Shown: positions 49,541-51,942 of the stretch, one piece after another
Layout: each line of letters begins with the position of its first letter
Numbering within the stretch: the first letter of the stretch is position 1
NCBI GenBank assembly: GCA_002633005.1
Contig: NMRA01000001.1
Coordinates: 9,328-73,327, forward strand
Reading direction: 5' to 3'
Length of the DNA stretch: 64,000 bases
DNA from: Phoronis australis
Taxonomy: Eukaryota > Animalia > Phoronida
Notes under the pieces: model-generated
The model's database searches: none
What the model saw: only the letters and a program-made list of their open reading frames with translations
What the model was told of the DNA's origin: nothing
Position numbers and translations under genes: made by a program

Positions 49541-49733
49541 GTTAAAAATGACACAGTGGTATCTGTGTGGAAGTACCATTGGGAGGGGCAGGAGCGACTT
49601 TACAAGGATGAACTGAGTAACGTCACTAGGCAAGGTTACCGGGTTGTTCTGTCCTCATGTTGGTATCTCAACGTGATTGATTACGGTGCCGATTGGCAGA
49701 AGTTTTATGGCTGCGAGCCCACAGGCTTCAATG
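49541..49733 (+). CDS. HEXB: Beta-hexosaminidase mutually exclusive exon A
   Basis: ttcttag|[71 protein letters not shown], 193 nt. Confidence 0.92.
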
Positions 49734-50725
49734 GTGAGTTAACCAGTACACGCATGCCCCACTGATGCTTAGCGCCCTCTTTAGGCTAATTGTTTAACTG
49801 CTGGATCTTCTATGCAGTAGTCTCCTGCATGCAGTGGTTCCTGGTTTTGGCTGACACATGCAATCGGCTCTGGTAACAAAGATCTCTTCTAGATGATGGT
49901 CTCTCCAATCAAAACAAATAGCTTGATTACAAGAACATCTTCATTGCTTGCAGCATGTGCAATTAAATGTAAAAACCTGAAATCTTTTTTTTGAATTCCA
50001 TTCTCAAGGATTGAGAGGTCTGCCTGAAAGAGGGTGTTTCTGTCAACTTGGTGCTCGTTTCCGACTCAAGAGCACAGACTTTTCTTATGGGATGTCTGCA
50101 ACCTCTGAAACAGATTAGCCACAGTAACGGCATTCTTTTGCAAATGAGTTGTTTGAAGTTGATGCAACTTACTGTCCAGTCTTGATATCAAAGTAAAGAT
50201 CAGTTCATGGTCAACACCGTGTCCAGCATCTGCAAGCTCATTGTCTTCTGTATGACAAACATCATCCTACCATGAGAGGGAGCACATGATTTTCACTGTT
50301 GTTTATATGATAGTATTAATATCCATCGGGTGCCTGACGTCTGTAGAATCCCACCGTCACATGACAGTCACGTATCTGTCACTCCTATAATGTGGCACTG
50401 GCATTTCTATGCCCCAAATTCCCACAGTAGGACGTTGTGTCCTGTCTTTATGTATTATGCATTGGGCGTTGTTGGAGCTAACAGTTGGCGGTCATCATTA
50501 ACTGTAACTCTTAAACACACAGACACATGATTCTGGTATGAAAGGGTTAACCATGATCCTTCACAAATGTAAACTACAGGAGGCGCCACTGTCTTAAACT
50601 GGCAATCATCCTCCCAGCAAAAGATAAACACAATGTAATGGAACACATGACTCTATACATGTCTGTTCAACTGAGTTTGTCCAATTTCTCCATTGTGAAC
50701 CACCATTACTTGTACTCTTCCTCAG

Positions 50726-50903
50726 GCCAAGGCGGACACAGTTGTGCATGTCTGGAAGGATGGTTCTAATTGGCCGAAGGAGATGTCCAAGGTAGTCAGC
50801 ATGGGCTACCAGTCCATTCTGTCCTCGTGTTGGTACCTGAACTATATTGCCTATGGTAACGACTGGAGGCAGTACTACAACTGTGAGCCGTACAACTTTA
50901 ACG
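50726..50903 (+). CDS. HEXB: Beta-hexosaminidase mutually exclusive exon B
   Basis: cctcag|[66 protein letters not shown], 178 nt. Confidence 0.92.
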
Positions 50904-51758
50904 GTGAGTCTGCTGCTGGAAATGGTCCCATGCTCTAGTCTGTCTCTTATCACACACTTCACAGCATTCATGTGAGAATTAATCAAATTTCAAGTACTGA
51001 CCACAGCAGTAAGTTCACAGAATACGGTTTGAGTTTCCATCTTTTCTTTTCTGTTACATTGCTTGGCTTCCCTGTGATTTTCAGGTTGGTGTTTACTCCA
51101 GCTTGCACATTGTGGTTGCTGCGTTAGCACTTTCTGACTCGTGTATTCATTGTGGTAGGGACTACAACTTAGATGACCAGACCTGTGAACACGGTCACGT
51201 TACAAATCGTCTACTTGTAATTCCCTTCTGTTTCTGTACTTCAGTAACTTGGTTAAGTAGCACAACTTTGTGTTGTGCTACCATTTGGTTGTTGTGCTTT
51301 TGGTTTTCTGCATCGGTCTCCTGTCTGTTGTCATGGATGCTGGTGCATTATGGGATGGGTGAAGGTGCATTATGGGATGGATGAAGGTTTATTATGGGTA
51401 CTGACAAAACAGGATTTGCTTGCCCCACCTGAAATATGACTTTTGGCAAACCAATGAATAAAATTTCTAACAAAATAACTGGTCAAATTTTCCTAACATT
51501 TTTTTCAGTCCAATCCAGTGGTTCTGTGATACAATGGCAGCAACTTATAGTTTTCAAAAATTGAAAAAAACATAATCAAAGCTGTTTTGTTTGGTCAAAA
51601 CTTGTCGGAAATAAATTGTAAAAACAATCGCAACGAGAAAGGTTTTCTCTGAAATTCTGGCGGTGTTCCTATGATCAGATATTTGACTTTTTTAATCTGA
51701 AAACCACTGTCCTCATTGGCCTTTGAATTCACCCGTGGCACCGATCATCTCTGCCTAG

Positions 51759-51942
51759 GTGGATCAAGAGAATGTTGTGGTTGAGGCTTGGCTTGGCCAC
51801 GATGGTGGTTTCAAACAGGAACTTGCTAAGCTGACCAAGGCAGGCTACAAGACAATACTGTCAGCTTGTTGGTACCTTGACTACATCTCGTACGGCTCGG
51901 AGTGGTATAAATACTATGACTGTGAGCCGGGAGATTTTGACG
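51759..51942 (+). CDS. HEXB: Beta-hexosaminidase mutually exclusive exon C
   Basis: gcctag|VDQENVVVEAWLGHDGGFKQELAKLTKAGYKTILSACWYLDYISYGSEWYKYYDCEPGDFD G|GTGAGT, 184 nt. Confidence 0.92.

Follow-up and report, generated by a model that had tools for sequence, protein, structure and literature searches.

Mutually exclusive exons at a predicted substrate-specificity site in a β-hexosaminidase-type gene of Phoronis australis

Does one β-hexosaminidase-type gene supply several forms of its enzyme by exchanging an exon at the active site? The question arises from a 64,000-nt stretch of the genome of the phoronid Phoronis australis (GenBank assembly GCA_002633005.1, contig NMRA01000001.1, positions 9,328 to 73,327, forward strand; hereafter the window, with coordinates counted from its first letter), in which a sequence-only reading had noticed three homologous exons between two single-copy exons and had proposed that one gene yields three isoenzymes where vertebrates use duplicated HEXA and HEXB genes. 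Our main reading, to which we give a probability of roughly 70%, is that three tandem copies of an active-site exon, used one per mRNA, likely give rise to subunits with different substrate preferences and dimer contacts.

The gene model runs on the plus strand from 38033 to a stop codon at 54151, and all residue counts start at exon 38033. A profile search matched PF14845 and then PF00728 to successive exons with the profile order kept; PF14845 scored 37 bits in the hexosaminidase model (cut-off 27), and two single exons reached 99.4 and 45.4 bits with PF00728 (cut-off 22.3). The N-terminal Glycohydro_20b2 domain lies in the earliest constitutive exon located (38033–38329; PF14845 E = 6.9e-9, with AG/GT sites and frame), followed by the constitutive exons 38796–38905 (gene model and tblastn with a Lineus homologue), 40896–41006 (gene model), where the GH20 catalytic domain begins with PF00728 positions 1–22, 41935–42036 (gene model; PF00728 E = 9e-12), 42660–42973 (PF00728 E = 3.5e-28) and 43563–43649 (gene model). 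Aligned with homologues, exon 42660–42973 shows the motif HLGGDE (H-x-G-G-D-E), which we take to be the catalytic Asp–Glu pair of GH20. Exons 5' of 43563 come from the gene model, and RNA reads were mapped over 48401–54400 only; the 3' end of exon 43563–43649 equals the consensus of the loose read ends at 48571 (120, 114 and 224 reads). The cluster itself is bounded by an upstream constitutive exon of 79 nt that ends in phase 0 (48573–48651; splice sites, RNA junctions and frame) and a downstream constitutive exon of 91 nt (52743–52833; RNA junctions, frame and profile search). After these come a constitutive exon of 105 nt (53400–53504; junction reads 50/52/129 and 97/74/215) and the last coding exon, which ends at a TGA stop (54094–54151; gene model, with reads running on into the 3' UTR). 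Exon B of the cluster and the segment 53401–53502, each searched alone, gave zero Pfam matches at E 0.1.

The gene-model protein shared 56–61% identity over ~510 residues with its 45 best matches, which were animal HEX proteins, and clustered with an invertebrate-only HEX group (91/91) in a tree built without a hemichordate, a cephalochordate or a named cnidarian. By sequence likeness, the gene is assigned to the GH20 β-hexosaminidases of the HEXA/HEXB type. No first exon or signal peptide was found by tblastn with the N-termini of relatives over 25001–38100 (one N at 37310), and a lysosomal location of the product would rest on family likeness.

Exons A (49541–49733, 193 nt), B (50726–50903, 178 nt) and C (51759–51942, 184 nt) each have an AG acceptor and a G/GTGAGT donor and are stop-free on translation. 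They are homologous tandem exons of shared phase between common constitutive exons, with introns of 992 and 855 nt (GT–AG) between the copies. Inclusion of A, B or C alone leads to the natural stop after 514, 509 or 511 residues, respectively, whereas the wrong combinations stop early, after 373 residues with none, 444 with AB, 438 with AC, 433 with BC and 444 with ABC. The positions, lengths, splice sites and frame logic given by the sequence-only reading were thus reproduced.

The copies are strongly diverged, with pairwise identities of 33/59, 27/61 and 27/58 residues and 22 invariant columns in the three-way alignment. Between copies, codon third positions agreed at 0.33–0.41, against 0.57–0.78 at first and second positions. 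NG86 estimates gave dS of 1.84–1.95 and dN of 0.44–0.51 (dN/dS about 0.23–0.28), with exon A near synonymous saturation relative to B and C (dS 1.95 and 1.84). The three listed read variants within the exons were all synonymous, and in simulations of neutral decay exon B retained an open frame and its AG/GT sites in 825, 249 and 42 per 20000 simulations at 0.3, 0.5 and 1.0 substitutions/site. Low dN relative to dS, synonymous read variants and the decay simulations support the earlier suggestion of selection on all three exons, and show that A, B and C are old copies kept under purifying selection.

Three raw RNA runs from one study (X2, X3 and X4; ~18% of each run) were mapped to the interval given above, with junctions listed at 3 reads from 2 starts. 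Upstream junction reads in X2/X3/X4 were 1/3/3 for A, 67/71/175 for B and 8/11/12 for C (totals 7, 313 and 31; n = 351). Downstream junction reads, which are sums over two alleles, were 0/2/5 for A (7/416), 87/90/185 for B and 22/14/11 for C. Exon A accordingly accounted for ~2% of junction reads, B for 87–89% and C for 9–11%. All six predicted junctions, from 48651 to each exon and from each exon to 52743, were present, the downstream junction of A being listed in two of the three runs. A set of contigs from a second study (X1, presumed to be RNA), of which 8 were aligned, contained the B and C forms and lacked A. No A–B, A–C, B–C or skipping joint was listed in the short reads of the three runs at at least 3 reads from 2 starts. 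The contrary patterns named by the sequence-only reading, splicing of a single exon or prevailing multi-exon inclusion, did not appear: three exons were spliced, and no multi-exon inclusion was listed. These results demonstrate that the gene holds a mutually exclusive exon cluster that is real and expressed. The share of C at the downstream junction was 20%, 13% and 5% across runs (chi-square P = 0.0005), but the run difference was not clear at the upstream junction (P = 0.16), so that run-to-run regulation of C inclusion is possible.

What makes the exons exclusive? Steric exclusion and a U12 switch were ruled out in the window by the 992- and 855-nt introns and their GT–AG sites. An intronic tandem repeat at 49069–49170, upstream of A, is a predicted docking site for a 22-nt tandem repeat in three copies at 51325–51412, between B and C, which is the predicted selector for C. 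Among six intron pairs scanned, this upstream/B–C pair scored best (−47.7, compared with −36.4 ± 2.7 in 25 whole-intron shuffles), tandem repeats being liable to inflate duplex scores. The full duplex (−71.6 kcal/mol) was matched by none of 500 local shuffles and ranked top among 6338 windows on both strands; none of 30 whole-intron shuffles reached the intron-pair score, and neither did any of 36 real block pairs drawn from the window (best −47.1). We consider it likely, on these pairing predictions, that the duplex is a docking–selector helix for C. With B as the default exon, pairing of the two repeats would place A and B in a loop and select C, and transcripts with double inclusion or a skip, carrying a premature stop, would be cleared by nonsense-mediated decay. 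The arrangement resembles docking site–selector pairing in Drosophila Dscam and serpent, which, according to PMC6071210 and PMC4691838, likewise involves long-range intronic complementarity around skipped exons. It differs from those systems in having one strong pair only, made of tandem repeats and predicted from sequence. A pyrimidine-rich stretch just past the donor of C (51946–52034; −46.9 in the block scan) was considered as a competing partner of the selector and set aside as weak, its pairing being reached by 26 of 500 local shuffles. Rbfox-type motifs, as we take TGCATG to be, were not enriched in the window (2 sites vs. 1.5 expected).

The strongest alternative, to which we give somewhat less than even odds, is that each exon is chosen independently according to splice-site strength or factors, that decay clears the frameshifted products and that the complementarity is due to chance. 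Every skip or multiple inclusion leads to a premature stop, so decay could enforce the observed pattern and would mask double inclusions; the intron lengths and GT–AG sites impose no steric block, and a selector before B was not found, the best score there being reached in 7 of 30 shuffles. However, chance complementarity sits poorly with a duplex that beats four separate controls and has the geometry of a docking–selector pair as described in the papers cited above. The docking–selector helix is the mechanism that we favor for C.

The swapped exon falls at a site of known importance in the human enzymes. It aligned with the human segment that contains α N423–R424 and β D452–L453 (PDB chain matches: HEXB, 4e-15; HEXA, 1e-11), and both B and C matched the human HEXB and HEXA chains. 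The specificity-site dipeptide is N-V in A, which has the longest loop, N-Y in B and D-Y in C; the N-Y of the window aligned with D-L of β and with N-R of the modified β chain 5BRO. Human HEXA and HEXB (PDB 2GJX and 1NOU) share with the window gene the PF14845–PF00728 pair and the aligned specificity segment. They differ from it in that each solved chain has one version of this segment, whereas the window gene has three, none with Arg at 424. According to PMC3587417, the dipeptide mainly decides the hydrolysis of negatively charged substrates, with Arg424 binding and Asp452 repelling them, the α IPV loop is also listed, and the change D452N/L453R gave engineered β hybrids MUGS activity. The IPV loop falls in the segment aligned with the swapped exon and matches its length-variable loop (exon peptides of 64, 59 and 61 residues in A, B and C). 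In human Hex, this exon is the one that decides the cutting of GM2 ganglioside and sulfated sugars.

Judged by these residues, C is β-like at the dipeptide and A and B are without the repelling Asp. With Asp at the β-452 position, C would be expected to repel sulfated or sialylated substrates in the manner of HexB. A and B carry Asn at this position and would tolerate such substrates, though they lack the binding Arg of HexA; mixed dimers could form wherever two forms are co-expressed. An Arg at the 424-equivalent position was absent from A, B and C, so that the α-type Asn–Arg pair occurs in none of the three, and the difference between the copies may lie elsewhere than in the α/β charge switch.

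A second alternative takes up this point and holds that the swap mainly alters the dimer interface, stability or binding of a partner such as the activator, and not substrate charge. According to PMC11699244, Arg424 and Tyr427, encoded by HEXA exon 11, lie at the active site and the subunit interface, Arg424 through Pro429 run along the α–β interface, Tyr427 coordinates the partner chain and the exon 11 region carries the commonest Tay-Sachs mutation; PMC8162980 agrees with this placing. Together with the position of most A/B/C differences, in the loop and helix preceding the dipeptide, and the missing Arg, this gives the interface explanation some weight. Against it, the dipeptide differed between copies in 12 of 12 cases of isoforms distinguished by this exon alone (see below), and hexb of teleosts and a frog alternates DY and NR, close to the engineered D452N/L453R of PMC3587417, which leads us to regard a pure interface effect as unlikely. 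We retain the reading that exon choice alters substrate preference as well as dimer contacts, and the swapped residues make distinct isoenzymes likely. The suggestion that only B, or perhaps B and C, matters and that A survives as a relic with noise-level splicing, to which the low read counts of A and its absence from the X1 contigs lend some color, is improbable, since A is open with intact sites despite its near-saturated dS to B and C, neither of the two read variants in A alters the protein, and true decay looks different elsewhere, two of six exon copies at metagenome locus L027 containing stops.

A search for the cluster in other animals, as the sequence-only reading had proposed, revealed the same exon swapped or doubled in many lineages. 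By sequence comparison these include a snail, bivalves, Lingula, echinoderms, teleost and frog hexb, and sturgeon hexa. The survey was seeded with a snail protein and the window exons and took the best 120 of 1617 and 1093 rows, so that it is a sample and no census. Among the matches listed, isoforms differing only in this exon were found in 7 of the 22 same-species groups compared, namely Bradybaena, two Magallana oysters, Lingula (three versions), Strongylocentrotus, Lytechinus and Siniperca; the two proteins of the snail Bradybaena are identical save for 18 residues, all inside this exon. Five of 11 further pairs, all five of them teleost hexb, also differed only in this exon. In the same 22-group comparison, several paralogue sets showed no exon-only difference, and isoform sets of chelicerates (Tachypleus, Limulus, two Dermacentor, Stegodyphus and Uloborus), for which isoform sets alone were compared, showed no exon-only swap. 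The Mizuhopecten isoforms X1–X3 were set aside, as they differ by truncation or skipping.

Two exon matches occurred in 26 of 286 proteins with a match, again among the matches listed. Of these 26, 20 have the copies side by side in a gene model (14 teleost, 2 sturgeon, 1 frog, Mya, Holothuria and 2 oyster), and P0035–P0038, P0198 and P0200, with 256–494 residues between the matches, were rejected as fused gene models. Tandem copies were also present in 5 of 50 metagenome loci (L006, L014 and its twin L015, L026 and L027), many of the remaining loci being intron-poor or short; neither L028, which holds two genes, nor L048, in which one exon is split, was counted as having tandem copies. In Strongylocentrotus isoform X1 (P0151), the alternative copy has N-R like human α in an exon that is otherwise diverged. 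L027 has six tandem exon copies within 3.1 kb (800–3928), the two stop-containing ones among them, which suggests ongoing birth and death of copies. L026 has two copies (4316–4698) separated by a 32-nt intron, which appears short enough for steric exclusion, and their 3' boundary lies four codons earlier than in the window. The L026 copies paired together in the exon tree (99/94); this grouping and the separate 3' boundary point to at least one independent duplication. A single clade of A, B and C had p-AU 0.052 in the exon tree of 57–58 columns, and the copies of invertebrates seem to be independent at least in part. If the same exon was duplicated repeatedly, this would mark it as a hotspot for glycosidase tuning.

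The human HEXA and HEXB genes are each taken to have a single such exon. The contrast drawn in the sequence-only reading, in which vertebrates rely on duplicated genes, nevertheless proved too simple, because teleost and frog hexb and sturgeon hexa hold two exon copies. Among 81 teleost rows picked by hand and taken as hexb (hexa could be among the unnamed ones), DY was the dipeptide in 49, NR in 24 and another pair in 8, and the hexb model of the frog Gastrophryne has a DY copy followed by an NR copy. The sturgeon two-copy protein grouped with hexa (100/99), and a cyprinid hexa isoform passes into a second copy where the exon starts and terminates thereafter. The presence of two copies in both hexa and hexb suggests that the pair is older than the hexa/hexb split. 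Two cyprinid hexa isoform X3 proteins (P0206 and P0207) use a first copy that is fast-evolving and has D-L at the specificity site, and the proteins end a few residues on; this copy is possibly in decay.

When scored on human β/α, part of any shift being due to the dipeptide itself, perch hexb gave 73.1/48.5 bits for copy 1 and 60.5/59.7 for copy 2, frog copy 2 gave 67.8/63.4 and window exon B 58.5/47.2. The sturgeon copies gave 65.8/54.3 and 65.9/58.3, a preference that barely differs. In the best tree, from which human exons were left out, the second copies of hexa and hexb stood on one side of a branch (56/94, not starred); gene-wise clades were not rejected (p-AU 0.31 and 0.34), nor was any of the tested topologies (p-AU 0.31–0.47). 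We put forward, tentatively and with rather less than even confidence, that an old and widespread splicing switch existed at the specificity exon and that the human HexA/HexB division descends from such a pair, HEXA having kept the N-R copy and HEXB the D copy. In the gene of the vertebrate ancestor, the first copy would then have been of D type and the second of N-R type, and the pair would have passed to hexa (as in sturgeon and cyprinids) as well as to hexb (as in teleosts and frog). If so, fish hexb alone could make an α-like subunit. If splicing sets the dipeptide in many animals, one gene would yield natural α-like and β-like subunits, which would provide natural counterparts of the engineered β–α hybrids, a testable origin for the HEXA/HEXB split and a reason for caution in fish models of Sandhoff and Tay-Sachs disease.

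How much of this was on record? RefSeq already annotates exon-swap isoforms in several species, and supplement S4 of PMC8933327 has one MXE row for HEXB of Acanthochromis polyacanthus (delta-PSI −0.136), in which flanks of 73 and 91 nt enclose exons of 181 and 175 nt; the main text of that paper names hexb once in a gene list without discussing the event. The teleost hexb pair in these sources (RefSeq isoforms X1/X2; PMC8933327 S4) lies at the same exon position as the window cluster, with isoforms differing only there, and comprises two copies, DY and NR, whereas the window has three. Tandem duplicated exon substitution as described in PMC9741552 and PMC4494069 likewise concerns homologous exons of similar length and phase, of which one is used, that are old and conserved; both papers start from human events, and PMC4494069 also describes the separation of splice isoforms between paralogues after gene duplication. 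HEXA and HEXB are not mentioned in the main text of either paper or in two of the three supplement files of PMC4494069, and a term search of the zebrafish hexb paper PMC6772114 returned no mention of isoforms or splicing. No literature description of this hexosaminidase exon cluster was found in full-text searches, whose coverage lay outside subscription journals and whose matches were mostly judged by listing. The sequence-only reading knew of no description of the arrangement for GH20 hexosaminidases; no describing paper was found here, although the RefSeq isoforms and the supplementary row already record the arrangement. The cluster represents a known kind of splicing, at the specificity site of a gene family in which it was annotated but not found described.

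Several other features were observed in the window. The HEX intron 43650–48572 contains a piece of a nested antisense gene on the minus strand (44803–45425 and 46164–46470), with a Cys/Gly-rich open frame of 133 residues and, further up, a hydrophobic start and a coiled-coil-like stretch. The 133-residue frame had zero Pfam matches and a weak Atlas lead only (F5/8 type C / SRCR clusters, score 0.80); the nested piece presumably resembles the fibrinogen-like domain of contactin-associated proteins. A tandem duplication of 347 nt with 98% identity at 46171–46869, whose copies are separated by a single N at 46517, is probably an assembly join of two alleles. Two near-identical copies of a ~200-nt element, possibly a small mobile element, flank the first exons located (about 37560–37770 and 39150–39345). 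On the minus strand, 60056–60818 contains long open frames that consist of a tandem repeat; a short stretch ahead of them, as we take it, resembles electron transfer flavoprotein alpha.
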